Assembly: GCA_014237915.1 (NCBI GenBank)
Contig: JABACC010000013.1
Location: 64,568-128,567, forward strand
Source of the DNA: Candidatus Paceibacter sp.
Lineage (GTDB): Bacteria > Patescibacteriota > Minisyncoccia > Phycocordibacterales > GCA-2747955
DNA: 64,000 nucleotides
Direction of reading: 5' to 3'
Each line of letters begins with the position of its first letter. The first letter of the stretch is position 1. Shown here one piece after another: positions 7,900-62,833 of the stretch. The translations under genes were made by a program, and so were the position numbers. A model generated the notes under the pieces. The model did no database searches and was not told the DNA's origin. It saw only the letters and a program-made list of their open reading frames with translations.

Positions 7900-8664
7900 T
7901 TAATTCCCTATTTGATATGTAATGGTTACACTTTTTTTAAGCTCTGATTCTCCTACTGGAATATTTGCTTGAGCAAAAGAAGTAGTATCTAGAGAAAATT
8001 GTTCTGATTGATAAGCTCTGGCTGCATACGGGCTTGTATTTGATCCTTCAGAAAAACTAACAATTTTAGAAAGTTTAATTCCTAATTCATCTTCTAATTT
8101 TTCTTTTTTCACTTTTGCTTTTTCAATTGCTTCAGCTCTTAAGTTTTCCAAAATCTCTTCTTCGTTTGAAACATAAAGATCTGGTCCAGAAACTGAATCA
8201 ACATTCAAATCGGAGACAAGCGATAGAACTTTTTCAACATTTTCTAAATTTAGAATATTAATTTCTATACTTTGGCTAACTTTGTAACCCAAAAAAGTTT
8301 TCCTTTCGATGGGATCTATGTTTCTATAATCATAAGAATATTCTGGATAAACTGCATAATTTTTTGTTTTTATATCTTTTTCTTCAATTTTTAAATCTTC
8401 AAGATTTTTTAAAAGATCTGAAATTCTTTCATTAACAGAATTTGTAGCCTCTTCTAGGTTTGAGTTTGTTCTAATCATTGTAAAATTTATTTTTGCAGCA
8501 TCTGGGATGACTGTTTTTTCAGCTTCTGCAGAAACATAAATTACTCTTGAAAGATCTTGTGTCATTCTTACTTCTTTGTCTAAAGAATTAAAAATTGCAA
8601 CAAGCGCCACAAAAAGTGTAAAAATTACCAATAATTTTATATTTTTTATATTATTTTCTTCCAT
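7900..8664 (-). CDS. SIMPL-domain (DUF541, YggE/BP26-like) periplasmic protein
   Basis: The N-terminal TM/signal, VSAEAEKTVIPDAAKINF core, ~250 aa length and two-lobed pattern are all typical of SIMPL/DUF541. Confidence 0.55.
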   Translation of the reverse strand: MEENNIKNIKLLVIFTLFVALVAIFNSLDKEVRMTQDLSRVIYVSAEAEKTVIPDAAKINFTMIRTNSNLEEATNSVNERISDLLKNLEDLKIEEKDIKTKNYAVYPEYSYDYRNIDPIERKTFLGYKVSQSIEINILNLENVEKVLSLVSDLNVDSVSGPDLYVSNEEEILENLRAEAIEKAKVKKEKLEDELGIKLSKIVSFSEGSNTSPYAARAYQSEQFSLDTTSFAQANIPVGESELKKSVTITYQIGN

Positions 8665-9636: not shown

Positions 9637-10125
9637 ATGTTAAAGATTAAAAAATTAGAAGGCAAAAAAGCTCCGCTTTTTTGCCTCCAAAATCAAAACG
9701 ATGAAAAAGTTTGTTTAAATGATTTTTTAAAAGAAGGATTTGTTCTTTTGTATTTTTATCCCAAAGACTTAACAACTGGCTGCACAATTGAAGCTATTGG
9801 TTTTTCAGAACTCTCAAAAAAATTTATAAACAATAATATAAAAATCTTTGGAATTTCAAAAGATCTTCCCAAAACCCACACAAAATTTATAAAAAAAGAA
9901 GGTTTAAAAGTAGATTTACTTTCAGATATTGATGGAAAAATTTCTTCTCGTTATGGGGTTTATGTTGAAAAGTCTATGTACGGAAAAAAATATATGGGAA
10001 TTTCAAGAGAAAGTTTCTTGGTAAATACTTCTGGAAAAATAATCAAACACTGGGAAAATGTTTCTCCAAAAGACCACCCGGAAGAAGTTCTTTCTTTTTT
10101 TAAAGAGTTAAAAGAAAAAAAATAA
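9637..10125 (+). CDS. bcp: Peroxiredoxin Bcp (thiol peroxidase, AhpC/TSA family)
   Basis: It carries LYFYPKDLTTGCTIE, matching the FYPKDxTxGCT peroxidatic-Cys motif. Confidence 0.8.
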   Translation: MLKIKKLEGKKAPLFCLQNQNDEKVCLNDFLKEGFVLLYFYPKDLTTGCTIEAIGFSELSKKFINNNIKIFGISKDLPKTHTKFIKKEGLKVDLLSDIDGKISSRYGVYVEKSMYGKKYMGISRESFLVNTSGKIIKHWENVSPKDHPEEVLSFFKELKEKK

Positions 10126-11476: not shown

Positions 11477-12421
11477 TTAAGATTTTTTACCTTGAAGTAA
11501 AACTATTATCGGGCTTGCAAAAAATATTGAAGAATAAGTTCCAATAATTGTTCCTAAAATTAAAACAAGAGAAAAAGATTTTGTTAGTTCTCCTCCTACA
11601 AAAAATAATGTTGCCAAAACCAAAAAAGTTGTGATTGAGGTAAACAAAGATCTTCTAAAAGCTTGATTTAGAGAATTCCCAACAATTTTTTCAAAATCTT
11701 CGCCTGAAGGAAAAATTTCTATTTCAATTTCTCTTCCCTCTTCATTTTTCTTTTTTTCCACAGAAACGGCTAATCTTAAATTTTCTCTAATTCTATCAAA
11801 AATAACAATTGTGTCATTTACAGAAAATCCTAAAATGGCTAAAATGGCCGTCACAAATAAAACATCAATTTGATATGCTGGAAAAAATAAACCTAAAATT
11901 GAAAAAAATGCTGTTGGAATTAAAATATCGTGCAAAAGTGCAAGTGTCGCTACTGCTCCGTATTTAAAAGAAGAAACGGGTTTTGAAACATTTCTAAAAA
12001 CATAAGCAATAAATAAAATTATAAAAATAACTACGAAAACAAAAGTAAAGATTGATTTACTTAAAAGCTCTTTTGAAATACTCGGGCTAACTGTCCTAAA
12101 ATTTATCTCTTGATATTTTCCAAAATCAGACAACTTTTCTTTCAAAAAAGAAAAATTTTCCTCCGAAAGCTCCTCTGTTTTCACAAAAAAAATATTTCCA
12201 TCACCACTAGAAACTTTCAAGGAGCTAAAATCTTTTTCTAAAGAACTTGAAATTTGGGAAATTTCTGGAATATTTTTTTCTAAATATTCTATTTCATAAA
12301 TTGATCCTCCTTTAAATTCTACGGAAAAGTTAAATCCAAAAACGGAAATAACCAAAACTGACAAAGCCATTAAAAAAAAGGAGATTCCTATAAATATTTT
12401 TTTATTTTTTAATACAAACAT
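11477..12421 (-). CDS. secF: Protein translocase subunit SecF
   Basis: VEFKGGSIYEIEY is the SecF signature. It is polytopic and adjacent to secD. Confidence 0.8.
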   Translation of the reverse strand: MFVLKNKKIFIGISFFLMALSVLVISVFGFNFSVEFKGGSIYEIEYLEKNIPEISQISSSLEKDFSSLKVSSGDGNIFFVKTEELSEENFSFLKEKLSDFGKYQEINFRTVSPSISKELLSKSIFTFVFVVIFIILFIAYVFRNVSKPVSSFKYGAVATLALLHDILIPTAFFSILGLFFPAYQIDVLFVTAILAILGFSVNDTIVIFDRIRENLRLAVSVEKKKNEEGREIEIEIFPSGEDFEKIVGNSLNQAFRRSLFTSITTFLVLATLFFVGGELTKSFSLVLILGTIIGTYSSIFFASPIIVLLQGKKS

Positions 12422-22789: not shown

Positions 22790-23344
22790 TTACTTTTTAT
22801 TTTTACTTATTTTTTCAGGAACGGGTAAACCTAATTCTTCAAAAGTTATTTTGTTAAAATAATATTTACATTCAACACTTATTATATAATCAAGAACATC
22901 CTTGTATTTTTCTTTTCTAAACCAATCATTAAGTATATAAACATACTCGACTTTATAATTTAATTTTAAGAATATTTTTTGATATTGCTTTTTTTTAAAA
23001 TCACAAGTTTGTAATTTTTCATCAACAGACCCTTCTACTTCTTGATACTTAACTTCCAAAATAAAAATTGTATTTTCTTTAATTACATAAATTACATCAT
23101 CTGGTAACAATTTTTTAGAAATTATTTTTCTCCAATCAATGTTTTTAGCTTCTAAGAATTTATATAATTCATGTTTCCTAAAAGAATAAGCCACTGTCTT
23201 ATTATTAAAATTTATTTTATGACCAATAGTATCTTTTTTAGTAGTATATCCTTCTTTTTTGTCTAAAAAAACTAATATATCTACTTCTTTTTCAAACTCT
23301 ATTCCTGTTACAGTATTTCCTCCCCCTATTCCATTTTTTTTCAT
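22790..23344 (-). CDS. Candidate Type II restriction endonuclease (PD-(D/E)xK)
   Basis: LPDDVIYVIKENTIFILEVKYQ fits PD-x(n)-E-x-K. It lies immediately downstream of a DNA methyltransferase in the same operon. Confidence 0.45.
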   Translation of the reverse strand: MKKNGIGGGNTVTGIEFEKEVDILVFLDKKEGYTTKKDTIGHKINFNNKTVAYSFRKHELYKFLEAKNIDWRKIISKKLLPDDVIYVIKENTIFILEVKYQEVEGSVDEKLQTCDFKKKQYQKIFLKLNYKVEYVYILNDWFRKEKYKDVLDYIISVECKYYFNKITFEELGLPVPEKISKNKK

Positions 23345-23347
23345 ATT

Positions 23348-24193
23348 TTAATTTTTAACTAAATTTTTACCCGTATAGAAACTTGAAAAAACTTTAGATG
23401 TTTTTTTATTTTTTTGCAAATCTTCAAATCTCTTTATCGATAAATCTAGAAATTCTTTTTCTTTATCTATTCCAATAAATTTTCTTCCATATAGGTTTGC
23501 AATTATCCCAGTTGTGGAACTTCCCGTAAAAGGATCTAGTACAACATCTCCTTTGTTTGTACTAGACAGGACAATTCTTTTTAATAGATTTTCCGGTTTC
23601 TGTGTCGGGTGTTTACCAAATTTTTTTTCAATAGGTTTAGGTGTTGCCATAGACCAAACTGATCTCATCTGTAAATTTGGTTTTTTAATTTGATCTTCAG
23701 GCCAATCTCCGTTTTTCATTAAATCATAATTAAAGGTATGTTTGCCTTTCTTGTCTTTTCTTGCCCACACAAGTGTTTCATGACTTGCGGTAAAAAACCT
23801 GCAACTTAAATTAGGTGAGGCGTTCGGTTTAAACCAAGATACGTCATTTAAAATATGGAATTTATTTACCTGTAGCGCAAACCCACATTGGTAAATCGAG
23901 TGATAGGTTCCGCTTATCCAAATTGTTCCGTTTGGCTTTAAAACTCTCCTGCAAGCTTCTATCCAGGAAAGGTGGAAGTTAAAGTCTTCCTTAAGCCCGG
24001 AGCTCTTATCCCAATTTCCTTTGTCTACACTAACTCTTTTTCCCGACTGAACAGAAAAACCACCATTTGAGAGATTATATGGAGGATCTGCAAAAATCAT
24101 GTCAATTGAATTTTCTGGCAAAGAACTTAAAACTTCCAAGCAGTCATTTTGATAAAGTGAAAAATTTCTTTTTTTATAATAAACTTTTTTCAT
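23348..24193 (-). CDS. DNA methyltransferase, beta class, likely N6-adenine (possibly N4-cytosine)
   Basis: Motif IV IFADPPYNL precedes motif I LDPFTGSSTTG, which is the beta-class order. Confidence 0.8.
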   Translation of the reverse strand: MKKVYYKKRNFSLYQNDCLEVLSSLPENSIDMIFADPPYNLSNGGFSVQSGKRVSVDKGNWDKSSGLKEDFNFHLSWIEACRRVLKPNGTIWISGTYHSIYQCGFALQVNKFHILNDVSWFKPNASPNLSCRFFTASHETLVWARKDKKGKHTFNYDLMKNGDWPEDQIKKPNLQMRSVWSMATPKPIEKKFGKHPTQKPENLLKRIVLSSTNKGDVVLDPFTGSSTTGIIANLYGRKFIGIDKEKEFLDLSIKRFEDLQKNKKTSKVFSSFYTGKNLVKN

Positions 24194-24294
24194 AGAAATA
24201 TTTTAGCAAAAATAATTTTTTATACCAAATCATGAATTTGTTTTGAGTGGGAAATTGCGGAGCAATTTCCCACTCGAAAAAATTTTAAAAAATA

Positions 24295-24324
24295 AAAAGT
24301 GCGCACCGAAGGTGCGCACTTTTA
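24295..24324 (-). terminator. obg terminator hairpin aaaagtgcgcaccgaaggtgcgcactttt
   Basis: It is near-identical to 58644-58673, with compensatory g/t and c/a changes in the stem. Confidence 0.5.
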
Positions 24325-29579: not shown

Positions 29580-30926
29580 TTAAATACTAAAATTTTTATA
29601 AAAATCTTCATCGCTATCTTCTCCGTCTTTTTTCTCTTCGTTATAATTTTCAAAATCAATAGTCGTCTCATTTTCTTTTTTACCAAAATCTTCTCCAATT
29701 ATAATTTCACTGCTTTGGATATTTTTTTCAAGCTCTGAAAATTTTTCTGAAAAAATTTCTTCTTCTGTTTTTTCTTTGTTTTTGAGCGGAAAAAGCGGAG
29801 CTTTTTCCGCTTCAACATATTTTTCAACATTTTCTATTTTTTCCGCATCTTTATTTTCCCTTCTAAAATCATTATTTAAATCTTTTTTTAACTCATCTAA
29901 TTTTTCATCATACGAAATACTTCCTAAAGTATAAGAAATTTCTTTATTTTCTTCTTCTAAATTTTCCCTCTCATCTTTTTCTTCAAAATTCTTTTCATCA
30001 TTTTGATTAAAATCCAAACTTGGATTTTGATCAAATAGAAAATCGTCTTCGGGTTTTTTTTCTTCTGGTTTTTGCGGAAAAAGCTTCGCTTTTTCCGCAT
30101 CTCCATTTTTATCAATAATATTTAAAATATTTTGTAAACCTTCTTTTGAAAAAACATCCACCATTAATTTCATTCCTTTTTTTCTTTTTTCAACTTTCAC
30201 TGGCGAACCAAGTTTATCAGAAATTTTATTTTCAATTTCTCTAATCTCAGGATCAAAAACATCTTTTTTAGATTTACCCACCACAATATTTCTTGCAATT
30301 TTTTCAGCTTCTCTAACTGTTAAATCATATTCTAAAATCTCTTCCAATAATTTTTTCTGATCTTCCTCTTTTTCTTTCAACATTAAAAGCGGGCGTGTAT
30401 GCCCTTCTGAAATTTTTCCCGCCTGCAAAGCTTCCAAAATATTTTCAGGTAAAAGCAAAATTCTCAAAGCGTTTGAAATATATTCTCTGGATTTTCCCAT
30501 TTTTTCAGCAATTTGATCATGAGTTAGAGAAAATTCCTCTGAAAGCCTTTGAAAAGATTTTGCTTTATCGATTGGATTTAAATCCTCTCTTTGTAAATTC
30601 TCAATAATGGCAAGTTCTAATTTTTCACCTTCCGTGTTTTCTCCTTCTCTGATAATTGCGGGGATTTTTTTTAGGTTTGCTATTTTAGAAGCTCTAAATC
30701 TTCGCTCTCCTGCAATAATTTCAAAAAAAGAATTTTCTAAATCATCAGAATCTGAAATGGAAGATTTTTTTCTAACCACCACTATCGGTTGTAAAACACC
30801 ATACTGGGAAATTGAAGAAGCTAAATTATTTAATTTTTCTTCGTCAAAAAATTTTCTTGGCTGGTCTGGATTTGGAATAACTTTTTCTAAATCCAAATAA
30901 AAGACAGAGTTTTGTTTAAAATTCAT
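29580..30926 (-). CDS. parB: ParB/Spo0J-like protein with a long acidic C-terminal extension
   Basis: The N-terminus has VIPNPDQPRK...LQPIVV and the FEIIAGERRFRASK (GERRxRA) CTP-binding box. No parA is adjacent. Confidence 0.75.
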   Translation of the reverse strand: MNFKQNSVFYLDLEKVIPNPDQPRKFFDEEKLNNLASSISQYGVLQPIVVVRKKSSISDSDDLENSFFEIIAGERRFRASKIANLKKIPAIIREGENTEGEKLELAIIENLQREDLNPIDKAKSFQRLSEEFSLTHDQIAEKMGKSREYISNALRILLLPENILEALQAGKISEGHTRPLLMLKEKEEDQKKLLEEILEYDLTVREAEKIARNIVVGKSKKDVFDPEIREIENKISDKLGSPVKVEKRKKGMKLMVDVFSKEGLQNILNIIDKNGDAEKAKLFPQKPEEKKPEDDFLFDQNPSLDFNQNDEKNFEEKDERENLEEENKEISYTLGSISYDEKLDELKKDLNNDFRRENKDAEKIENVEKYVEAEKAPLFPLKNKEKTEEEIFSEKFSELEKNIQSSEIIIGEDFGKKENETTIDFENYNEEKKDGEDSDEDFYKNFSI

Positions 30927-45675: not shown

Positions 45676-46434
45676 TTATAAAAATTTTTCTCTATATTTT
45701 GACATTACAATTCCCGCAGAAACCGAAACATTTAAAGATTCTACTTTTTTTAAAATCGGGATATTTATTATAAAGTCAGATTTTTTTAAAGTTAAAACTG
45801 AAACTCCTCCCCCTTCCGATCCTAAAACAAAAGCAGTGTTTGTGTCAAAAGAGTTTTCAGAAAAAATTTCTGATCTTTCACTTTTTCCATCAAGAGCATA
45901 CATCCAAAATTTTTCTTTTTTTAATTTTTCAATTAAATTATTTATATTTGAAACTTTAATAATTGGCACAGAAAAAATATTTCCAGCTGAAGATTTGAAA
46001 ACCGCTCCGTTTACAGGCGCGGAATTTTTCTCTTCGAGAAAAATTCCGCAAACCCCAAAAGCTGCCGCCGAGCGCACAATAGCCCCCAAATTTCCCACAT
46101 CAGAAATTCCATCCAAAATTAAAACTAAATTTTTCTCAGGTTTTAAAAAATTATTTTTCCAATTATCAAAATTAAGATATTCAAAATTTTCAATTTGGGC
46201 TAAAATATTTTGGTGATTAACCTCCCCCACTTTTTTAAACGCAAAATCTTTGCTAACTATTTCTATTTCCACTTTTTTTGGAAAGTTTTCTATTTTAGAA
46301 GTAAAATTTTTAACCTCAGCTTTTTTCAAATCAACAAAATAAAATTTTTTTATTTTGTTTGCATTATTTTTCAAAACTTCTGAAATTACATTTTTCCCAT
46401 AAATGAAAAAACCTTTTTCTTTTTTATTATTCAT
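45676..46434 (-). CDS. TrmH/SpoU-family RNA 2'-O-methyltransferase (RlmB-like)
   Basis: SpoU motifs are present (ILDGISDVGNLGAIVRSAAAFG, ALDG, FVLGSEGGG). The plus-strand ORF 45617..46216 is its shadow. Confidence 0.75.
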   Translation of the reverse strand: MNNKKEKGFFIYGKNVISEVLKNNANKIKKFYFVDLKKAEVKNFTSKIENFPKKVEIEIVSKDFAFKKVGEVNHQNILAQIENFEYLNFDNWKNNFLKPEKNLVLILDGISDVGNLGAIVRSAAAFGVCGIFLEEKNSAPVNGAVFKSSAGNIFSVPIIKVSNINNLIEKLKKEKFWMYALDGKSERSEIFSENSFDTNTAFVLGSEGGGVSVLTLKKSDFIINIPILKKVESLNVSVSAGIVMSKYREKFL

Positions 46435-50230: not shown

Positions 50231-51067
50231 TTAAATACTAAAAAAATTTATTCCAAAAAATTTTCTTAATTTTCCAATTTTTGTTCTTTTTATTGAAAGT
50301 GCCAAGCCTTTTGTTTCTAATTTTTCAGCAATTTGCTCAGAAAGAACTCGCATATAAGTTCCTGAAGAACACCGGCATTTTATTTTTAAAATAGTGAATT
50401 TTTTATTTTCTGGAAAATTTTCAAAAACTTTTTTCCATTTTTGACGGATTTCCGCTCTGCGGAAATCCGCCCCTAACTGCTTTGATTTTTCCTCAACTTT
50501 TTTTGGTTTTTCAATTTTCTCAAATATATATTTTTCTAAATCTTTTTTTGAAATTTCTCTTTTTTCTAAAAATTTTAAATAATAAATTTCAACTTCTTTT
50601 TTAGGAATTTCTATTTCGTTTTCCTTTCCTTCTAATTTCCACAAAAAAAGCGGTTTTCCTAAAACTGTTTTTGATGAAAACAACGGATAAGGAAAAAGAT
50701 TTTTTCCTTTAAAAGAATTTAAAATTTTTTGGATTTTTTTAGGTGCAAAAAGCGAAGCTTTTTGCACCTCAATATTTTTTCTATCATTTTCAAAAAAATT
50801 TCCCAAACCTAAAACATCTCCTGTGTCTGAAAAAAAATCAAGCAAAATTTCAACCTCATATTCTTTATCTAAATTTAAATACTTATCTCTTTTTTTACAT
50901 TCATCTCCAACAAGAACAAGCATCTTCCCTTCTGCCATCGGGTCTAATCTCCCAGCGTAGGCCATTTTTTCATTTTCATAAGCTGAATTTTCTTTTTTAA
51001 AATTTTCAATAACTTCCAGTGGAGTTTGCCCAACTTTTTTATTTAAAACTAAAAATTTTTTATTCAT
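50231..51067 (-). CDS. truB: tRNA pseudouridine(55) synthase
   Basis: MAYAGRLDPMAEGKMLVLVGDECKK matches the TruB catalytic Asp motif (GTLDPxAxG). Confidence 0.75.
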   Translation of the reverse strand: MNKKFLVLNKKVGQTPLEVIENFKKENSAYENEKMAYAGRLDPMAEGKMLVLVGDECKKRDKYLNLDKEYEVEILLDFFSDTGDVLGLGNFFENDRKNIEVQKASLFAPKKIQKILNSFKGKNLFPYPLFSSKTVLGKPLFLWKLEGKENEIEIPKKEVEIYYLKFLEKREISKKDLEKYIFEKIEKPKKVEEKSKQLGADFRRAEIRQKWKKVFENFPENKKFTILKIKCRCSSGTYMRVLSEQIAEKLETKGLALSIKRTKIGKLRKFFGINFFSI

Positions 51068-53560: not shown

Positions 53561-53632
53561 TCCACAGTAGCTCAGTGGTAGAGCAGTTGACTGTTAATCA
53601 ATTGGCCGTAGGTTCGAATCCTACCTGTGGAG
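53561..53632 (+). tRNA. tRNA-Asn (anticodon GTT)
   Basis: TCCACAG-TA-GCTCAGTGGTAGAGC-A-GTTGA-CTGTTAA-TCAAT-TGGCC-GTAGGTTCGAATCCTAC-CTGTGGA-G. Confidence 0.9.
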
Positions 53633-53764
53633 CAAAAATACAAATTCTAAATCAAAACAGATAGTAAATATCTATCTCCCGAATCTGGAGCTTATTTTTT
53701 TATTAATAAAAATAAAATTGAATTTATTTTTTTTTATTGATAAAATAATATAAATTAACAAAAT

Positions 53765-55012
53765 ATGAAAACATACAAAAAAAATGAAGAATTAAAGAAA
53801 GATATGCCTGAAAAACAAGTGTTTTATTATGTGGACGAAAAAGAAGAACTTAATGTTTTATCCAGAGAAGTCTATAAAAAAAGACCTCTAGAGGTTCATT
53901 ATCCTTTTAAAAAGGATGGTGGGCCAAAATATAAATACATTAAATCTGTAGAATTTCATAATATTTCACCATCATTAATTAAGGGTGTCTTAAAATCACC
54001 AAAAATGGGACTCGGTTTTACTCGTTATCTCAGTCCTGTTGTATACGAATTAGAAAAATTTGAAAATATACAAAAAATAATAATATCTAAAAACGACCAA
54101 TCCTATTTTGATAAAAAAAGTATTACTTTTAATATTTGTGACCTTGAGAAAATGTTTAGGTGCTTAAAACCGTTTAAAGATGTCCAGTCCAGTAAATTAA
54201 AGACAACTTCTAATAATTTACTTTCGGAAATATTTCCAGAAAAAATAAAAGAGGTTGGGCACTCTTATACTAAAAATGAGCTAGGTATTTTTATAAGAGA
54301 AAATAAACTAACGCCTGATGAATTATCTGAAAAAGATGTGGAGAGTGTCATCTCGTTAATTCCTAAAAATATAAGTACTGAAAAAGTTTTCTTCCAAGCA
54401 GAAGAAAAAATAAATTTCATTAAGTTGAACAAAATCAAAGAAGATTTTAATAAATTACTTAATCAAAAAACAGACACCTCTAAGCTAGAAGAAAAATGTC
54501 AACAATTTTTTAAAAAAAATAGCTGGGTACTTTCCAATATCCTTTCTGTTCCTGTAGCCATACTGAAGGACAAGGCTTACGTAGGGGGTAAAGACTATAA
54601 AGACACAGGTGGACGAATCGCTGACTTTCTATATAGTAATAAATTTACAAAGAATGTTTGTGTAATTGAAATTAAAACTCCACTAAAAAAAATTATTGAC
54701 GCAAAAACACCATACAGAAAGCCTGATGTGTTTAGTCTTGGAAAAGAACTCACGGGTGGTATCGTCCAGGTATTAGACCAGAAGGATAATTTGCAGAAAG
54801 ATTTTTATAAGCTCTCTCAAGGTGATGAATTCAAATCCTTTAATCCTAAAGTTTTATTAGTAATAGGTAGGATTTCTTCGCTAACTAGTGAACAGTTGAA
54901 ATCATTTGAATTATTCAGGGGTAACATTAAAGATGTTGAAGTGGTAACTTTTGATGAATTGAATGAGAGGACAGATATAATATTCGGTAATTTTCTAGAT
55001 AACAAAAAATAA
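53765..55012 (+). CDS. Shedu-like anti-phage defence protein candidate (DUF4263-type PD-(D/E)xK nuclease domain)
   Basis: The C-terminal half carries GRIADFLY...VCVIEIKTP (D...ExK), then GGIVQVLDQ, then VLLVIGRISSLT and EVVTFDEL. This matches the ordered DUF4263/SduA motifs as recalled. It is a single gene between two tRNAs, and its composition differs from the flanks by eye. Confidence 0.5.
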   Translation: MKTYKKNEELKKDMPEKQVFYYVDEKEELNVLSREVYKKRPLEVHYPFKKDGGPKYKYIKSVEFHNISPSLIKGVLKSPKMGLGFTRYLSPVVYELEKFENIQKIIISKNDQSYFDKKSITFNICDLEKMFRCLKPFKDVQSSKLKTTSNNLLSEIFPEKIKEVGHSYTKNELGIFIRENKLTPDELSEKDVESVISLIPKNISTEKVFFQAEEKINFIKLNKIKEDFNKLLNQKTDTSKLEEKCQQFFKKNSWVLSNILSVPVAILKDKAYVGGKDYKDTGGRIADFLYSNKFTKNVCVIEIKTPLKKIIDAKTPYRKPDVFSLGKELTGGIVQVLDQKDNLQKDFYKLSQGDEFKSFNPKVLLVIGRISSLTSEQLKSFELFRGNIKDVEVVTFDELNERTDIIFGNFLDNKK

Positions 55013-55142: not shown

Positions 55143-55215
55143 GCCACTTTAGCTCAGTTGGTAGAGCAATGGTTTTGTAAACCATAGGTCGTGGGTTCGA
55201 ATCCCTCAAGTGGCT
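55143..55215 (+). tRNA. tRNA-Thr (anticodon TGT)
   Basis: GCCACTT-TA-GCTCAGTTGGTAGAGC-A-ATGGT-TTTGTAA-ACCAT-AGGTC-GTGGGTTCGAATCCCTC-AAGTGGC-T. Confidence 0.9.
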
Positions 55216-55232
55216 CAAAAAGTTAAAAAAAT

Positions 55233-55300
55233 TTTGAGAAAGAATAGCCAAAAAAATGGAAAGCAATTGCTTTCCATTTTTTTGGCTATTCTTTCTCAAA
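55233..55300. terminator. Very long perfect inverted repeat (29-bp arms, AATT loop) between tRNA-Thr(+) and tsf(-)
   Basis: The arms are tttgagaaagaatagccaaaaaaatggaaagc and gctttccatttttttggctattctttctcaaa, separated by aatt. Confidence 0.55.
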
Positions 55301-55310
55301 ATTTTTAAAA

Positions 55311-56759: not shown

Positions 56760-56804
56760 AATGAGCGATATTTTAACAAATTTTCAGTTTTTAGCAAAGA
56801 AAAA

Positions 56805-56833
56805 GCGGGCAAAAAGCTTCGCTTTTTGCCCGC
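56805..56833. other. Hairpin gcgggcaaaaagc-ttc-gctttttgcccgc in the divergent rpsB/thrS intergenic region
   Basis: It is the same GC-clamp/TTCG family. It lies in the 5' region of both genes rather than a 3' end. Confidence 0.4.
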
Positions 56834-56858
56834 TTTTTCTTTTTACACTTAATTTTTA

Positions 56859-56874: not shown

Positions 56875-58620
56875 ATGGATAAAAATAGCAAAATTTACAA
56901 AATTAGGCATTCTTTTTCTCATCTTTTAGCAATTGCAATTTTAGAAAAATTTCCAGATGCAAAAATTGTTTCAGGGCCCCCCACAGAAACTGGCTTTTTT
57001 TATGGAGTTGATTTTGGAAAAGAAAAAGTTGAAGAAAAAGATTTAAAAGATTTTCAAAAAAAGATAAAAAAATTAATTTCTCAAAACCTAGCTTTCATAA
57101 AAGAAGAAAAAACAAAAGAAGAACTTTTAGAATTTTACAAAAACAACGAATACAAAAAAGAAATTACTGAAGATAAAGCCAAAGACGGAAAACCTCTTAC
57201 AATTTACAAAACAGGTGAAAATTTTTTTGATCTTTGCTCTGGGCCTCACGTGGAACACTCTGCTGATTTGCCAATTGACTCTTTTCGAATTGATAAAATT
57301 TCAGGAGCTTATTTTAAGGCAGATGAGAAAAGACCAATGCTCACAAGAATTTATGGAACAGCTTTTGAAACAAAAGAAGGTTTGGAAAATCACGACAAAA
57401 TGCTTAAAGAAGCAGAAAAAAGAGACCACCGAAAAATTGGAAAAAAATTAGATTTATTTACTTTTTCTGATTTGGTTGGGTCTGGGCTTCCTCTTTTTAC
57501 TCCCAAAGGAACTTTAATGAGAAATTTAATAACAGAAGAAATTGAAAAAATTCAAAAAAATTTTGGTTGGCAAAAAGTTACAATTCCTCATATTACAAAA
57601 AAAGATTTATACGAAAAATCTGGGCATTGGGAAAAATTTGGAGACGAGCTTTTTAAAGTTTCTGGAAAAACCGATCAAGAATTTGTTATGAAACCAATGA
57701 ACTGCCCTCATCACACACAAATATATTCAGCAAACCCAAGATCTTATAAAGATCTTCCTCTAAGATTTTCAGAAAACGGAGTTGTTTACCGAGACGAACA
57801 GCAAGGAGAGCTTCTGGGAATTTCCAGGGTTCGCGCAATTACTCAAGATGACGGCCACTCTTTTTGCACCCCAGAGCAAGTTGAAGAGGAAATTTCAAAT
57901 ATTATTTTAATAATCAAAAAATTTTACACAAAGTTTGAAATGTTTGATGAGAAAAATTTATCGGTTTCACTTTCTATTTCTGATCCAAAAAAACCTGAAA
58001 AATATATGTTGGAAGACGGGCTTTTTAAAAAGGCAGAAGAAATTTTAGAAAAAATCGCCATAAAAGAAAACTTACCTTACAAAAAAATTGAAGGTGAGGC
58101 AGCTTTTTACGGGCCAAAACTTGATTTTCATTTTAAAGATGCGCTCGGAAGGAGTTGGCAGTTAGCCACCGCTCAGCTTGATTTTTCAATGCCAAAAAGA
58201 TTTGATCTTCTCTACACAGACAGCGACGGACAGAAAAAAAACCCTGTAATGATACACCGAGCAATTGCTGGATCTTTGGAAAGATTTATGTCTGTAATGA
58301 TAGAACATTTTGCAGGAGAATTTCCTTTTTGGCTCTGCCCTGTTCAAGTTTCCGTAATTCCAATTGCTGAAAATTTAAATCAAAAAGCAAAAGAAATTAC
58401 AAAATTTTTAGAAGAAAATAATTTTAGAGTTGAAAGTGATTATTCAAAAGAATCTTTTGGAAAAAAAGTAAGATCTGCAAAAGAGCAAAAAATTCCTTAT
58501 TTTATAATTGTTGGCGAGCGTGATCCTGAAGGAAAATTCACATTAGAATCAAGAGACTCTGAAGAAAAATTAGTTTTAACTCCAGAAGAGATTTTAGAAA
58601 AATTTGAAAAAGAAAATTAA
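56875..58620 (+). CDS. thrS: Threonine--tRNA ligase (lacks the N-terminal TGS domain)
   Basis: It begins at MDKNSKIY with the editing-domain HxxxH (RHSFSHLLA). The class II core has RDHRKIGKKLDLF. The tracked upstream extension crosses a hairpin. Confidence 0.85.
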   Translation: MDKNSKIYKIRHSFSHLLAIAILEKFPDAKIVSGPPTETGFFYGVDFGKEKVEEKDLKDFQKKIKKLISQNLAFIKEEKTKEELLEFYKNNEYKKEITEDKAKDGKPLTIYKTGENFFDLCSGPHVEHSADLPIDSFRIDKISGAYFKADEKRPMLTRIYGTAFETKEGLENHDKMLKEAEKRDHRKIGKKLDLFTFSDLVGSGLPLFTPKGTLMRNLITEEIEKIQKNFGWQKVTIPHITKKDLYEKSGHWEKFGDELFKVSGKTDQEFVMKPMNCPHHTQIYSANPRSYKDLPLRFSENGVVYRDEQQGELLGISRVRAITQDDGHSFCTPEQVEEEISNIILIIKKFYTKFEMFDEKNLSVSLSISDPKKPEKYMLEDGLFKKAEEILEKIAIKENLPYKKIEGEAAFYGPKLDFHFKDALGRSWQLATAQLDFSMPKRFDLLYTDSDGQKKNPVMIHRAIAGSLERFMSVMIEHFAGEFPFWLCPVQVSVIPIAENLNQKAKEITKFLEENNFRVESDYSKESFGKKVRSAKEQKIPYFIIVGERDPEGKFTLESRDSEEKLVLTPEEILEKFEKEN

Positions 58621-58643
58621 ATTTAAAAAATTTGAAAAAAATA

Positions 58644-58673
58644 AAAAGCGCGCACCGAAGGTGCGCGCTTTTT
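58644..58673 (+). terminator. thrS terminator aaaagcgcgcaccgaaggtgcgcgctttt
   Basis: It is near-identical to 24295-24324, with compensatory stem substitutions. Confidence 0.55.
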
Positions 58674-58711
58674 ATTTTTTTCAAAATTTTAGTTTTTTAA
58701 AATATTTTTTA

Positions 58712-58738
58712 GGCGGAAAAAGCTTCACTTTTTCCGCC
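58712..58738. repeat. Palindromic element ggcggaaaaagc-ttca-ctttttccgcc with conserved 5' flank aaatatttttt (left copy bounding the 58.7-61.3 kb islet)
   Basis: It shares ~45 bp with 61292-61337 in direct orientation. The same core occurs in-frame inside parB. Confidence 0.5.
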
Positions 58739-58753
58739 CAAAAAATAAACTCA

Positions 58754-59116
58754 TCAATCTATCTCAAATTTTAAAAAATTTTTAATTCTTTTCTTATCCT
58801 CGATTGCTTTATTGCCTTTAAAATAAATATCAATAAAGAAAATTTCATTTTTTTCTATATTATAAAAATAAATAAGTCTTATTCTATCTGAGCTTTTCAA
58901 AGATCTGCATCTAACCCTAACTTTAAAAACTTGTTCAGAAAAACCCATTATTGGATCAATTCTTATTATTCTAGTGCCCTCCTTATTTTTCCCTGTTGGA
59001 AATTTACTGATTATTTTTTCCACTATAGCCAAATCTTCTTCTAAAGATATATATTTTTTCTTTAGCTTTTCAAAATCTTTTGAAAATTCTTTCGTTTCCT
59101 CTATTCTGATATTCAT
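58754..59116 (-). CDS. RelE/ParE-superfamily toxin candidate
   Basis: It is 120 aa with an N-terminal IEETKEFSKDFEKL and a C-terminal RIRLIYFYNIEKNEIFFIDIYFKG pattern. It lies directly downstream of an HTH/Panacea antitoxin gene. Confidence 0.5.
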   Translation of the reverse strand: MNIRIEETKEFSKDFEKLKKKYISLEEDLAIVEKIISKFPTGKNKEGTRIIRIDPIMGFSEQVFKVRVRCRSLKSSDRIRLIYFYNIEKNEIFFIDIYFKGNKAIEDKKRIKNFLKFEID

Positions 59117-59121
59117 AAAAT

Positions 59122-59811
59122 CTATTTAACGGAAAACTCTTCGCTTCTATAAAAAACATACTCGTAATCAATATCTTCTAAATCATTGGCTACAGCCCAA
59201 GGTATATCTCTATGAGAAATATTCGATATCTCTGTAGCATTTTTTTCTGAATACTTTTTTAAAACATCATTTATTAAATCAAGTTCTTGGCCAGTAAGTA
59301 AAGATAAGTCTGGATTTTCTCGTGGTAAAAATTTTTTTTGCTCTTTTTTATAATGGGAAGATTTTACCTCTTCTATTTTTTTATCTTCTTTCATTTTTTT
59401 AATAAGTCTTTCAAAATTTCTAGGAGTTGGCCCGTGTTTATTTTTAAAATAAGTAAGTCCCATTAACTGCTTTTGATATTTTTCATAATAATCAAAATCA
59501 ATAAAATATAAAATTTTATACAATACTGTTTGCCCAACATTTGGTTTGGCTCCAATTTGATTTAAAATATATAAAAAAACTTGTCTAAACTTATCTTCTT
59601 TTTCTTGTGGAATATTTATCTTTAAATTTTTCTCTTGGTTTTCTTTTTCAAAGAAATTAAAAAATTCTTTGATTTTATCTTCTTCATCTTTTTTTAATTT
59701 TCTTTCTCCTTTTTCTATTTTTATTAAAGTTGGTCTAGAAACACCAATCTCTTTTGCTAAATACTCTTGAGAAATGGAAAACTCCTTTCTTTTTTTCAAA
59801 ATATTAATCAT
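59122..59811 (-). CDS. XRE-family HTH fused to a Panacea (DUF4065, SocA-like) domain: PanA-type antitoxin candidate
   Basis: The N-terminal HTH reads ISQEYLAKEIGVSRPTLIKIEKGER. The C-terminal part reads VGQTVLYKILYFIDFDYY...GLTYFKNKHGPTPRNF, matching the Panacea core (LQKLLYxxxG...GPV). Confidence 0.6.
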   Translation of the reverse strand: MINILKKRKEFSISQEYLAKEIGVSRPTLIKIEKGERKLKKDEEDKIKEFFNFFEKENQEKNLKINIPQEKEDKFRQVFLYILNQIGAKPNVGQTVLYKILYFIDFDYYEKYQKQLMGLTYFKNKHGPTPRNFERLIKKMKEDKKIEEVKSSHYKKEQKKFLPRENPDLSLLTGQELDLINDVLKKYSEKNATEISNISHRDIPWAVANDLEDIDYEYVFYRSEEFSVK

Positions 59812-59907
59812 ATAATTAACATTATAAACAAATATGTAAAATATTACAAATTTTTTTGTAAATTTAATAAAAATACATTTCCTGTTTTAAACTTAAAAAA
59901 AATAAGC

Positions 59908-60156
59908 TTAAAAATCAAAATCAATTTTTCTTGTAATTTCTGTTAAATATTCTCTCAAATATGAATTAAAAGATTCACTAAAAAATATTGTTGTTTTTTC
60001 TTTTTTGTATAAAACAAATAAAGCTTCTGTTTGTTTTTTTATTTCTTTGTCTTTTGTTTTTTCCGTTACAAAAATAATAAGATCCATAAATTTATTTTCA
60101 GAAATAAATTTTGAATATTTTTGTTTTTCTTGTTTTGTTAATTTTATTGTTTTCAT
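59908..60156 (-). CDS. Hypothetical 82-aa protein preceded by a ~200-nt structured leader
   Basis: ORF preceded by a GC-rich leader (60196-60330) and an extended -10 at 60368-60376. Confidence 0.4.
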   Translation of the reverse strand: MKTIKLTKQEKQKYSKFISENKFMDLIIFVTEKTKDKEIKKQTEALFVLYKKEKTTIFFSESFNSYLREYLTEITRKIDFDF

Positions 60157-60195
60157 AAAAATTTTTTTAAAACTCTGAGCTTTAAAATTTTTTAT

Positions 60196-60330
60196 AAAAA
60201 CAAAAAGCCCACCACCAGGGTATCCCGAAGGATATATAGAAGGTTTCCCCGCTATAACCAGAACAACTAGCCCACTGATGATGGGTTTTCTATGTTGTTC
60301 TGGTTTATTTGTTTCACCATACTAATTTTT
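60196..60330 (-). ncRNA. GC-rich structured RNA element, candidate cis-regulatory leader or riboswitch (unclassified)
   Basis: The minus strand has nested hairpins: CCAGAACAAC...GTTGTTCTGG enclosing CCCAU-CAUCA-GUGGG, then UAUAG-CGGGGAAACCUU-CUAUA, then UAUCC-UUCG-GGAUA, then GGUGGUGGGCUUUUUGUUUUU. It sits between a TGCTAAAAT promoter and the ATG at 60156. Confidence 0.35.
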
Positions 60331-60367
60331 TTTTTTGAAAAAAATCAGGTTAGGCTATTACTTCCCT

Positions 60368-60376
60368 ATTTTAGCA
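60368..60376 (-). promoter_or_regulatory. Extended -10 TGCTAAAAT (minus strand), part of a repeated 16-mer TATTTTAGCATAAAAA
   Basis: The same 16-mer occurs at 61212-61232 upstream of the DUF3800 gene. A related TGCTAAAAT lies at 25366-25374 upstream of obg. Confidence 0.4.
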
Positions 60377-60498
60377 TAAAAAGAAGGTGATGAATGAATT
60401 TTAATTTATTGTTGATAAGTTTTTTATAAATTTAAATTTATTATGTTAATATTATTTATGAACCATTGTTGTATAAATTCAGAAAAAAGTTCCGGGCC

Positions 60499-61152
60499 TT
60501 AAGGGATATCCGGGCTTTTTTCTTTTTTCATTAAGCTTTTTTTAACAATTATAGATTTATAGTGTTCCGTTTTTATAAAACCTTTTTTTATGCCTTTCTG
60601 GAAAATATCTAAAACTTGTAAACAAGGGCAGTACCTAGAATCTATTTGTATTATTTTACTAAAATTTGGTAAATTATAATTACCGAGTAAATATTTTTCT
60701 AATCCATCTTTATAATCTTTTGAATCATTATATTTATCAAAAATTATTTCAATACTTCCAGAAAAATCTTTCAACTTTGAATATTTAACAATATATTCAA
60801 GACCTTGCCTTAAAATAAAATTTCTAAAATCATTATATTCCCTACTTTCTAAATAAGGCCCTCGATAATTTTCTTTTTCTATATTTAAATTGAAAAATAA
60901 TATCTTTTCATTATTCAATAGAAAATCCATGCAACTAAAAAAATTCTTAAAATTTGCGCCCCTAATTGCTTTCAACTCTTTCTTGTAATTATTGAATAAT
61001 TTAAATCCGCACACTAGTTTCTCTATCTCGTTAACTTCATCTTCGGCAATGAGTAAAAAATTAAGATTAAAATTATCCGAACTATTATTGGTTTTATATC
61101 CTGGGTCACCACTTTCATCGATAAATAAAAAAATTGTACTACTATCTAACAT
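60499..61152 (-). CDS. DUF3800-family protein
   Basis: The N-terminal IFLFIDESGDPG matches the DUF3800 (Y/F)IDESG signature. The C-terminus has a CLQVLDIFQ (Q..D) motif. Confidence 0.5.
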   Translation of the reverse strand: MLDSSTIFLFIDESGDPGYKTNNSSDNFNLNFLLIAEDEVNEIEKLVCGFKLFNNYKKELKAIRGANFKNFFSCMDFLLNNEKILFFNLNIEKENYRGPYLESREYNDFRNFILRQGLEYIVKYSKLKDFSGSIEIIFDKYNDSKDYKDGLEKYLLGNYNLPNFSKIIQIDSRYCPCLQVLDIFQKGIKKGFIKTEHYKSIIVKKSLMKKEKSPDIP

Positions 61153-61218
61153 ATTAATTTTTATAATGATCTCCTGATGGAGTTTAAGTTAACATTTAAC
61201 TTAACTTCTATTATTTGT

Positions 61219-61227
61219 ATTTTAGCA
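61219..61227 (-). promoter_or_regulatory. Extended -10 TGCTAAAAT upstream of the DUF3800 gene
   Basis: The minus strand reads ttttTATGCTAAAATacaaataatagaag. Confidence 0.4.
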
Positions 61228-61302
61228 TAAAAAATACAGAGAAATAGCAGATTATCGAAACTAATTCACTTTTTATTTTTATAAAATTTTTAAATATTTT
61301 TT

Positions 61303-61331
61303 AGGCGGAAAAAGCGAAGCTTTTTCCGCCT
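61303..61331. repeat. Palindromic element aggcggaaaaagc-gaa-gctttttccgcct with 5' flank aaatatttttt (right copy); also the gatB terminator
   Basis: It is a direct repeat of 58700-58745. Confidence 0.5.
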
Positions 61332-61354
61332 AAAAAACAAAATACTTTAAAATT

Positions 61355-62833
61355 TTAAAGAATTTTTTTGAAAATTTCTGTCAAAATTTGTGGGTTTGCA
61401 GAACCGCCTGTTTTTTTCATAGCTTGACCCATAAAAAATTTTAAAAGGTTTTCGTCTCCTGCTTTAAATTTTTGAACTTGGTCAGGAAATTGCGTAGCAA
61501 TTTCCTGTACAATTTTTTCAAGCTCACCTTCGTCTGAACTTTGAATTAAATTTTTATCTCCTGCAATTTTTTCAGCATCTCCAGATCTTTCAAAAAGCTC
61601 TATTAAAATATCTTTTGCTCCTCGAGAAGAAATTTTTCCCTCTAAAATCATTGAAATTATTTTTGTCATATTTTCTGCTGAAAAATTTTTCAGTTTTTCT
61701 AAAGAATTTTCTTTTTTCATAATCCCCGCAATATCTGAAGTTAAATAATTTGAAAGCAAAGAAAAAGCTTTTTTATTTTCAGAAAAATTTAAAGATGCTT
61801 TTTCAAAAATTTTGTCATATTCTGGGTTTTGTAAAAAAAACTCTACGTCTTCTGCTTTTAAAGAAAAACTATTAAAATACCTTTCTCTTTTTTCCAAAGG
61901 AAGTTCTGGTAAATTTTCTGAAATTTCTTTTTCTGAAAATTCGGAAATTTCAGAAAGTTTATATTTTGGAATATCTGGATCTGGAAAATATCTGTAATCT
62001 TCAGAATTTTCTTTTTTTCTTTGAGAAAAAGTTTTGGCTTTATTTTCGTCCCAACCTCTTGTTTCTTGATCAACTTTTTCTCCTTTTTCTAAAACTTCGA
62101 TTTGTCTTTGTATTTCATATTCAATTGCTGACTGAACGATTTTAAAAGAATTTAAATTTTTAACCTCTGTTTTTGTTCCAAAAAACTCTGGATTATTTTC
62201 TTTATTTTCGTGCTCTGAAATGGAAACATTTGCTTCGATTCTCATCTCCCCTTTTTCTAAATTTGCTCCAGAAACATCAAGAGTTCTTAAAAGCAGCTGT
62301 AACTCTTTTGCAAAAAAAGATGCGTGATCTGAATTTTTTATTTCTGGCTCTGTTACAAGCTCCATTAACGGAACTCCAGCTCTGTTAAAATCTACATAAG
62401 AATATTCTCCTTTGTGGGAAGACGACGCGGTGTCTTCTTCTAAATGAATTCTTGTAATTGGGGAATTTGCAAGATTTCCGCCTGAAATTAATGGATATTT
62501 GTATTGAGAAATTTGGTAAGCTTTTGGCATATCTGGATAAAAATAATTTTTTCTATCAAATTCCGAAAAATCTGCAATTTTTCCAGAAAGGGCTTTTCCG
62601 ACTTTCAAAACTTTTTTTACTGCTTCGTAATTTACATAAGGCAAAGCTCCCGGTTGAGCTGTGCAGATTTCACAAATATTTTCATTTGGCTTTGAATTGA
62701 AAGGATCGTTTTTACAAGAACAAAACATTTTAGAATTTGTTTTTAGTTCTGCGTGAATTTCAAGGCCGATTGTGGGCCAATATTTTTTTCCGCTTTTGCT
62801 TTGATAAGATTTTTTTAGAAAATTTTCTTCCAT
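61355..62833 (-). CDS. gatB: Aspartyl/glutamyl-tRNA(Asn/Gln) amidotransferase subunit B
   Basis: It has YWPTIGLEIHAELKTNSKMFCSC...ICEICTAQPGALP and a C-terminal YqeY-like domain. Confidence 0.85.
   Translation of the reverse strand: MEENFLKKSYQSKSGKKYWPTIGLEIHAELKTNSKMFCSCKNDPFNSKPNENICEICTAQPGALPYVNYEAVKKVLKVGKALSGKIADFSEFDRKNYFYPDMPKAYQISQYKYPLISGGNLANSPITRIHLEEDTASSSHKGEYSYVDFNRAGVPLMELVTEPEIKNSDHASFFAKELQLLLRTLDVSGANLEKGEMRIEANVSISEHENKENNPEFFGTKTEVKNLNSFKIVQSAIEYEIQRQIEVLEKGEKVDQETRGWDENKAKTFSQRKKENSEDYRYFPDPDIPKYKLSEISEFSEKEISENLPELPLEKRERYFNSFSLKAEDVEFFLQNPEYDKIFEKASLNFSENKKAFSLLSNYLTSDIAGIMKKENSLEKLKNFSAENMTKIISMILEGKISSRGAKDILIELFERSGDAEKIAGDKNLIQSSDEGELEKIVQEIATQFPDQVQKFKAGDENLLKFFMGQAMKKTGGSANPQILTEIFKKIL

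Follow-up and report, generated by a model that had tools for sequence, protein, structure and literature searches.

The window analysed here, a stretch of 64,000 nucleotides (contig JABACC010000013.1, positions 64,568 to 128,567), belongs to a scaffold of 169 kb in the metagenome-assembled genome of an uncultivated, AT-rich (27% GC) member of the Patescibacteria (Candidatus Paceibacter sp.). Between the housekeeping genes thrS and gatB it carries an islet of accessory genes, all on the minus strand, bracketed by two copies (called 'A' and 'B') of a palindromic repeat, which we consider to be related gene-end stem-loops. The initial annotation had placed the islet between these two genes and had described its content as non-housekeeping. 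Both statements were confirmed: thrS ends at 58620 and gatB stops at 61355, and domain matches recovered a Panacea antitoxin, encoded next to a conserved partner, and a DUF3800 protein; these genes are accessory in kind. The genes and features at the locus (window coordinates) are as follows.

56875-58620, plus strand: thrS, the left housekeeping neighbour, with an open frame from 56761.
58631-58685, bidirectional: intrinsic terminator of thrS, made up of an A-run, the GC stem GCGCGCACC and a T-run (hairpin family GCGCGCAC).
58700-58745, no strand: repeat copy A, with the palindrome proper at 58705-58745 and the core stem at 58712-58738.
58754-59116, minus strand: toxin candidate of 120 amino acids (aa), a conserved partner whose gene comes immediately downstream of that for the Panacea antitoxin.
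59122-59811, minus strand: antitoxin of 229 aa, with HTH_3 (XRE-type helix-turn-helix, HTH) and SocA_Panacea domains.
59908-60156, minus strand: open reading frame (ORF) of 82 aa, 17% GC, with no family match.
60221-60356, minus strand: probable LOOT small RNA (Rfam RF03000), from a covariance-model match.
60499-61152, minus strand: DUF3800 protein (PF12686) of 217 aa, 33.8 bits relative to a cut-off of 21.
61292-61337, no strand: repeat copy B, a perfect palindrome with 19-bp arms at 61297-61337 and the loop GAA.
61355-62833, minus strand: gatB, the right housekeeping neighbour, with its stop at 61355.

Alignment of the two copies recovered the repeat at the positions first described. Its left part, AAATATTTTTTAGGCGGAAAAAGC, is identical in both (58700-58723 and 61292-61315), and is followed by a centre of 3-4 nucleotides (nt; either TTCA or GAAG) and a right arm, CTTTTTCCGCC[C/T]AAAAAA, ending at 58745 in copy A and 61337 in copy B. 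The layout is that of a 41-nt palindrome, T6-A-GGCGGAAAAAGC-N3-GCTTTTTCCGCC-T-A6, the arms of A and B being 95% complementary between copies; the arms of copy A carry two mismatches (A·C at 58711/58739 and C·A at 58723/58727). The core, CGGAAAAAG-N5-CTTTTTCCG, was found four times in the window relative to none in 100 dinucleotide shuffles, and the 12-mer half-site (at most one mismatch) eight times relative to an expectation of 0.37, so the repeat is real and not a chance resemblance. The copies had been reported to lie in the same orientation, which holds for five extra flank bases (AAATA) but not for the palindrome itself: a shared orientation means little for a palindrome, and the loop of copy A (GCTTCAC) is, bar one base, the reverse complement of that of copy B (GCGAAGC). 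Beyond the block of approximately 46 nt, direct and inverted alignments of the flanks gave no similarity above that of random intergenic segments of this AT-rich genome, and no target-site duplication was visible in them. The extended homology expected from a segmental duplication was thus lacking as well, and the suggestion of a duplicated insertion target received no support.

Both copies are located shortly after genes. The toxin gene ends a minus-strand toxin-antitoxin operon, and copy A is situated 8 nt beyond its stop codon and 19 nt from the thrS terminator. Copy B lies 17 nt past the stop codon of gatB (minus strand) and approximately 65 nt before the DUF3800 promoter. When folded as minus-strand RNA, both copies formed 21-bp stems (-27.4 and -29.5 kcal/mol, z-scores near -7). 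Of the hallmarks of an intrinsic terminator they have the stem-loop shortly after a stop codon and lack the U-rich tract, since T6 precedes and A6 follows the stem, leaving no U-tract 3' of it on either strand. A and B are therefore not canonical terminators, and a terminator scan reported the adjacent thrS terminator and neither of the two copies. The thrS terminator would serve thrS on the plus strand and can, from its bidirectional layout, also end the toxin-antitoxin transcript on the minus strand.

Perfect hairpins (stem of at least 10 bp with at least four GC pairs) were counted across 77 kb, comprising the 64-kb window and 11 kb more of the same scaffold, and thus part of one scaffold. 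There were 27 in the window (0-1 in shuffles) and 32 in the 77 kb (approximately 0.1 expected), and 22 of the 41 gene 3' ends with a downstream gap (54%) carried one. A common design was a GC clamp, A5-7 and GC, followed by a GAA or TTC triloop, and the most over-represented k-mers in the 77 kb (GCGCGCAC, GGATTTTGC and GCGGAAAAAG) each made up eight half-sites in four palindromes. The possibility raised at the outset, that the repeat is a ubiquitous terminator whose presence around the islet is coincidental, thus applies to perfect hairpins as a class but not to the A/B sequence, which stands at only two gene ends. Long perfect palindromes are normal gene punctuation in this lineage. Two exceptionally long ones (2023-2097 and 55227-55306, with 36- and 38-bp stems) lie between convergent genes, and a terminator-shaped perfect palindrome of 47 nt (56796-56842), which may be a leader or attenuator, occupies the gap between the divergent starts of rpsB and thrS. 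The 619-aa ORF call for thrS passes through this palindrome with its first 38 codons, which are probably not translated; Met39 at 56875 is the likely true start. In a second assembly of the same sample, contig breaks fell within long palindromes, which is an effect of the assembler and not of heterogeneity.

Similar long perfect palindromes, some with shared cores, were present in loci of related Patescibacteria. In one of these (L087), palindromes at 7905-7929 and 11514-11574, 3.6 kb apart, share the core GAAGGGCGCCC and enclose a series of small genes that matched no family, with one further hairpin in between. At this gatB locus and at that of another relative (L086), the genes did not translate to the query proteins, and the L087 ORFs contain in-frame stops under table 11; a different genetic code or shifted coordinates may be the cause.

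The A/B family, GCGGAAAAAGC-N3-GCTTTTTCCGC, has four copies in the window and none in the extra 11 kb of scaffold. The element had been called dispersed, and this was borne out by the two further copies, both in the coding sequence of parB:

29785-29811, no strand: family member C, AGCGGAAAAAGC-gga-GCTTTTTCCGCT, encoding AEKAPLFPL in the C-terminal tail of ParB.
30073-30099, no strand: family member D, TGCGGAAAAAGC-ttc-GCTTTTTCCGCA, encoding AEKAKLFPQ, a few codons beyond the conserved dimerisation domain of ParB.

Each of these copies measures 27 nt, or nine codons, and their position within a coding sequence excludes a purely 'terminator' reading of the family. Across the four copies the arm variants (AGGCGG, AGCGG and TGCGG) are perfectly symmetric, and all eight half-sites in the 77 kb are paired, with no single copies. 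The parB gene (29580-30926, minus strand) encodes a ParB of 448 aa with an acidic tail of 170 aa, and no parA lies next to it. The tail is real, since homologues (41-53% identity) all have long variable tails and share a final conserved DD(L/I)Y..(K/R)NF(S/H)I motif; those of Patescibacteria reach 900 aa in total. Five other perfect palindromes with 11-14-bp stems (9660-9686, 46019-46049, 50445-50469, 50741-50769 and 61483-61507) were found inside the conserved genes ahpC/BCP, spoU, truB (two) and gatB, relative to approximately 0.1 expected for the window as a whole. In ahpC, the palindrome codes for the conserved GxxAPxF motif. The one in gatB (61483-61507) shows no indel relative to homologues, and its right arm turns a conserved ENP into QFP, which suggests that it arose in place, for example by template-switch 'perfecting' of a quasi-palindrome; such an origin weakens the need to regard copies inside genes as insertions of a mobile element.

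Whether the flanking of the islet is a coincidence was assessed by ranking the 32 hairpins by the length of the identical run read outward from the loop. The best two pairs were A/B (21 nt, including AT flank) and a second twin pair (18 nt), every other pair reaching at most 12 nt:

Locus L202, 110-148 and 2179-2219 (window coordinates -8682 and -6613): second twin pair, AAAAACAAAGTGCGCGCC-ttc/gaa-GGCGCGCACTTTGTTTTT, palindromes of 39-41 nt with inverted loops, 2.07 kb apart.

Both top pairs are immediate neighbours, 2.6 kb and 2.1 kb apart, respectively. The chance of adjacency for a random pair is 0.0625, and that for both top pairs approximately 0.004 (0.0625 squared). The placement of A and B is therefore not a coincidence, as the two most similar pairs are both adjacent. 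The L202 twins bracket three same-strand orphan genes (374, 173 and 52 aa) just downstream of khpA, a layout resembling that at gatB, and the loops are reverse-complementary within the A/B, L202 and parB pairs alike. A and B are probably related by descent, as paralogous copies of one stem-loop, and the neighbour pattern points to local copying of a gene-end hairpin tied to the DNA in between.

The islet itself consists of three modules and not of one cassette, since each is separately promoted (toxin-antitoxin; LOOT with the 82-aa ORF; DUF3800); no strong hairpin was found between them. The toxin-antitoxin operon is preceded by a sigma-70-like promoter (59849-59821). Its antitoxin scored 70.4 bits against PF13274 (cut-off 25.7) and 39.3 bits against HTH_3, and has more than 2,400 homologues. 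The 120-aa partner showed a weak similarity, below the cut-off, to RelE/StbE (TIGR02385; E 0.015); its position is kept in three other Patescibacteria loci, with 36-43% identity to two of these (L205 and L207). Elsewhere the pair recurs as a two-gene unit without DUF3800 or LOOT, inside a type I restriction-modification system, beside a GmrSD-like gene and beside an MmeI-type enzyme; judging by these contexts, the module is a typical mobile passenger of defence islands. A single-sequence structure model of the toxin candidate was unusable (predicted local distance difference test, pLDDT, 45), and sequence searches of the PDB gave no match for this protein or for the DUF3800 protein.

The 82-aa gene had been credited with a structured leader. 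The ORF and the structure are both present, but the 'leader' is the probable LOOT RNA, with a promoter of its own. The covariance-model score (46.4 bits; model positions 1-121; E 6e-7 in a 2.8-kb scan) equals the gathering score, and the match is to be regarded as borderline, since a whole-window scan with default filters omitted it. The region folds with a z-score of -5.6 relative to shuffles. Because an extended -10 promoter, TGCTAAAAT (60381-60367), ends approximately 10 nt before model position 1 and a U-run follows at approximately 60206-60196, LOOT is most likely a separate small-RNA gene. LOOT is an acronym of Lentisphaerae, OD1, OP11 and TM7, in keeping with the lineage studied here. 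The DUF3800 gene, on the same strand, ends 142 nt before LOOT and has the same promoter motif TGCTAAAAT at 61232-61218, the two promoters having the 15-mer TTTTATGCTAAAATA in common; LOOT could thus be a further DUF3800-associated RNA. No LOOT was found beside P0122, the sole DUF3800 homologue found with context. The N-terminal DE (FIDESGD) and C-terminal QxxD (QVLD) motifs of the encoded protein are those described for the DUF3800 family (PMC7736814).

Among the ORFs of the 77 kb there was no integrase, transposase or recombinase family, nor any RAYT/Y1 HUH transposase, TnpA or TnpB, and no tRNA was located at the islet borders. Codon usage in the islet is native-like (within 1.3 standard deviations of the genome mean), except for the more AT-rich 82-aa ORF. 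The strongest codon-usage outlier in the 77 kb, and for this reason a clearer candidate for recent acquisition than the islet, is a Shedu-type gene (SduA_C; 53765-55012, plus strand) situated between tRNA-Asn (53561-53633) and tRNA-Thr (55143-55216). Atypical codon usage was also observed at 22790-24193 (minus strand), where an N6/N4 DNA methylase gene and an adjacent 184-aa orphan, likely a restriction-modification pair, lie between obg and adk; this pair is preceded by a T-run/stem/A-run hairpin (24245-24275) beside a canonical terminator (24295-24323), like the end of thrS.

Comparative searches placed the nearest GatB proteins (62-66% identity) in Patescibacteria labelled Campbellbacteria or Pacebacteria, this GatB itself being found in one genome only. 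In the four nearest relatives with long contigs (62-65% GatB identity), thrS was in no case beside gatB, and the gatB neighbours differed in each. The palindrome core had 113 matches in metagenome loci, all single copy and from unrelated organisms (30-64% GC); by this distribution the core alone appears to be a generic hairpin. Searches of viral contigs and phage genomes with the palindrome, with the DNA of the islet and with the DUF3800 protein were all negative.

The explanation we favour, which in our judgement has about an even chance of being correct, takes A and B to be paralogous stem-loops at gene ends that bracket three accreted accessory modules, the hairpin having been copied locally. 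The A/B family, specific to this genome, belongs to the larger population of perfect hairpins placed just after gene ends, copy B being the 3'-end hairpin of gatB and copy A that of the toxin-antitoxin operon, back to back with the thrS terminator. In the RNA, we infer, the 21-bp stem would block 3'-exonucleases, or pause and insulate transcription, in the manner of repetitive extragenic palindromic (REP) elements. The three modules would have accumulated in the gap between the convergent thrS and gatB, and the arrival of these extra genes would have been accompanied or followed by local copying of the neighbouring gene-end hairpin, through duplication or conversion. On this view, the patch is presumably not a discrete, self-mobile cassette.

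Several observations weigh against this explanation. In parB, the same palindrome lies within coding sequence and can have no 3'-end role, and the RNA role of A and B is read from their position, in hairpins that have no terminator U-tract. The neighbour-pair statistic consists of two pairs in 77 kb, the census covers part of one scaffold only, and neither the Shedu unit nor the methylase unit has matching hairpins on its two sides.

The initial annotation had instead proposed the insertion or exchange of the 2.55-kb segment as a cassette, through recombination between copies of a dispersed palindrome. The hairpins would then be the joints, left either by Campbell-type integration of a circle with one copy or by an exchange resembling that of minimal mobile elements. 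Several of its premises stood: A and B are related and nearly identical over 41-46 nt, the element is dispersed (four copies), placement is non-random, with the best hairpin pairs being neighbours around accessory or orphan genes, and the islet genes are accessory, the toxin-antitoxin module being demonstrably mobile among Patescibacteria. The mechanism fared less well. No recombinase was encoded in the 77 kb, each arm offers only 19 nt of homology, and the loops are oppositely oriented in all three same-family pairs, unlike the outcome of a simple direct duplication. The three promoters, the fact that the module types do not travel together elsewhere and the native-like codon usage also argue against a single cassette. 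None of the mechanistic hallmarks of cassette exchange that could be checked was found, and we regard it as doubtful.

Less probable still, and in our view unlikely, is that the palindrome represents a small mobile element (similar to REP elements, miniature inverted-repeat transposable elements (MITEs) or mitochondrial GC clusters). Such an element would have inserted on separate occasions behind gatB, behind the toxin gene and, preserving the reading frame, at two sites in parB, and its flanking of the islet would be incidental. Four copies with perfectly symmetric arm variants would fit such an element, as would their occurrence in both coding and non-coding DNA and the in-frame length (27 nt, nine codons) of the copies in parB. 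However, no target duplication accompanies the copies, no RAYT or other transposase was found in the 77 kb, and the core was never multi-copy in the 113 metagenome loci. The gatB palindrome without an indel and the AhpC palindrome within a conserved motif indicate that palindromes can originate here without insertion, and A and B resemble each other much more closely than either resembles the copies in parB, as would be expected from local copying.

That A and B are independent terminators which converged through a narrow genome 'design', and flank the islet by chance, was already disfavoured and is very improbable. The shared architecture of many hairpins, present at 54% of gene ends, makes convergence conceivable, but the 21-nt identity from the loop includes the AT flank while other family members reach at most 12 nt, both top pairs are neighbours (P about 0.004) and a U-tract is lacking. 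The idea that the palindromes bind a dimeric protein, for example as non-canonical, parS-like centromere sites of the window's own ParB, can be all but set aside: two of the four copies lie in parB, much as Bacillus spo0J contains one parS site, and the window has no canonical parS (only chance-level matches to TGTTNCACGTGAAACA at three mismatches), but the palindrome is unrelated to TGTTNCACGTGAAACA in sequence and layout (11-nt half-sites with a 3-nt spacer, relative to a contiguous 16 bp in parS), its arm variants covary so as to keep pairing and not sequence, and several unrelated hairpin families behave alike.

A more far-reaching idea, which we put forward as a speculation with little likelihood, is that, in Patescibacteria genomes of this ultra-small, AT-rich kind, perfect gene-end hairpins are active elements at the DNA level, copied, symmetrised by template switching and serving as entry points for foreign genes. 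Hairpin-guided capture of this kind might leave the captured block between twin local hairpins without any recombinase, and template switching might also yield the gatB, ahpC and truB palindromes. If the twin pattern were general, it would mark sites of gene intake in reduced, uncultivated bacteria and provide a simple signature of recent acquisitions in genomes without recognisable mobile-element enzymes. As it stands, the locus is a warning against over-reading repeats, as palindromes form families, break short-read assemblies and mimic insertion boundaries. The LOOT RNA with its own promoter beside a DUF3800 gene may be useful to RNA researchers, and the Panacea toxin-antitoxin module, widespread in defence islands of Patescibacteria, to those studying defence systems.

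Several known systems resemble parts of this locus. The minimal mobile elements of Neisseria consist of alternative cassettes that occupy the interval between a pair of conserved genes and are transferred by transformation, with the help of homologous flanks. As in these, accessory genes without mobility genes lie between housekeeping genes with repeats at the borders; such elements are, however, defined by differing cassettes across strains, whereas the islet is known from one genome. Integron cassette arrays share the single gene orientation, the typical toxin-antitoxin cassettes and palindromic (attC) sites at 3' ends, but the perfect palindromes here have neither R/L boxes (GTTRRRY) nor extrahelical bases, no hairpin separates the modules, each module has its own promoter and no integrase is encoded in the 77 kb; an integron cassette with attC sites was rejected on these grounds. 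An integrative genomic island was likewise rejected (no integrase in the 77 kb, ambiguous orientation, no border tRNA, native-like codon usage). IS200/IS605 elements and palindrome-associated transposable elements (PATEs) carry a subterminal hairpin at each end, recognised by a Y1 TnpA, and conserved cleavage tetranucleotides. The islet has two mutually similar hairpins at its ends, but these are perfect palindromes, and no TnpA or TnpB was found in the 77 kb.

Among the accessory modules, the toxin-antitoxin pair is comparable to PanAT systems, in which a SocA/Panacea plus HTH antitoxin stands beside a small conserved partner in defence islands, but for the partner in this islet no curated toxin family reached the threshold, and its similarity to RelE/StbE is weak. 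Eleven structured RNAs, DUF3800-I to XI, accompany DUF3800 genes (PMC5737381), and retron type VII carries DUF3800 (PMC7736814). The islet likewise has a structured small RNA 142 nt from its DUF3800 gene on the same strand, but LOOT is not one of the eleven motifs and no reverse transcriptase is present here.

For the hairpins, inverted pairs of DNA uptake sequences (DUS) or uptake signal sequences (USS) form terminator stems in Neisseria and Pasteurellaceae (PMC1852404). There, too, a short sequence recurs as an inverted pair in gene-end stems and can also be intragenic, but the palindromes here occur approximately once per 16-19 kb and not once per kb, and without unpaired copies; with all eight half-sites in the 77 kb paired and no k-mer at uptake-signal abundance, an uptake sequence was rejected. 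The remaining comparison is with the REP elements and bacterial interspersed mosaic elements (BIMEs) of enterobacteria. Differences are the perfect palindromes with triloops found here, their occurrence as several unrelated low-copy families, some within coding sequences, the absence of a RAYT transposase from the 77 kb and the Patescibacteria lineage. In common are multi-copy, genome-specific stem-loops just past stop codons, without a U-tract, and a plausible role in protecting mRNA 3' ends or insulating transcription.

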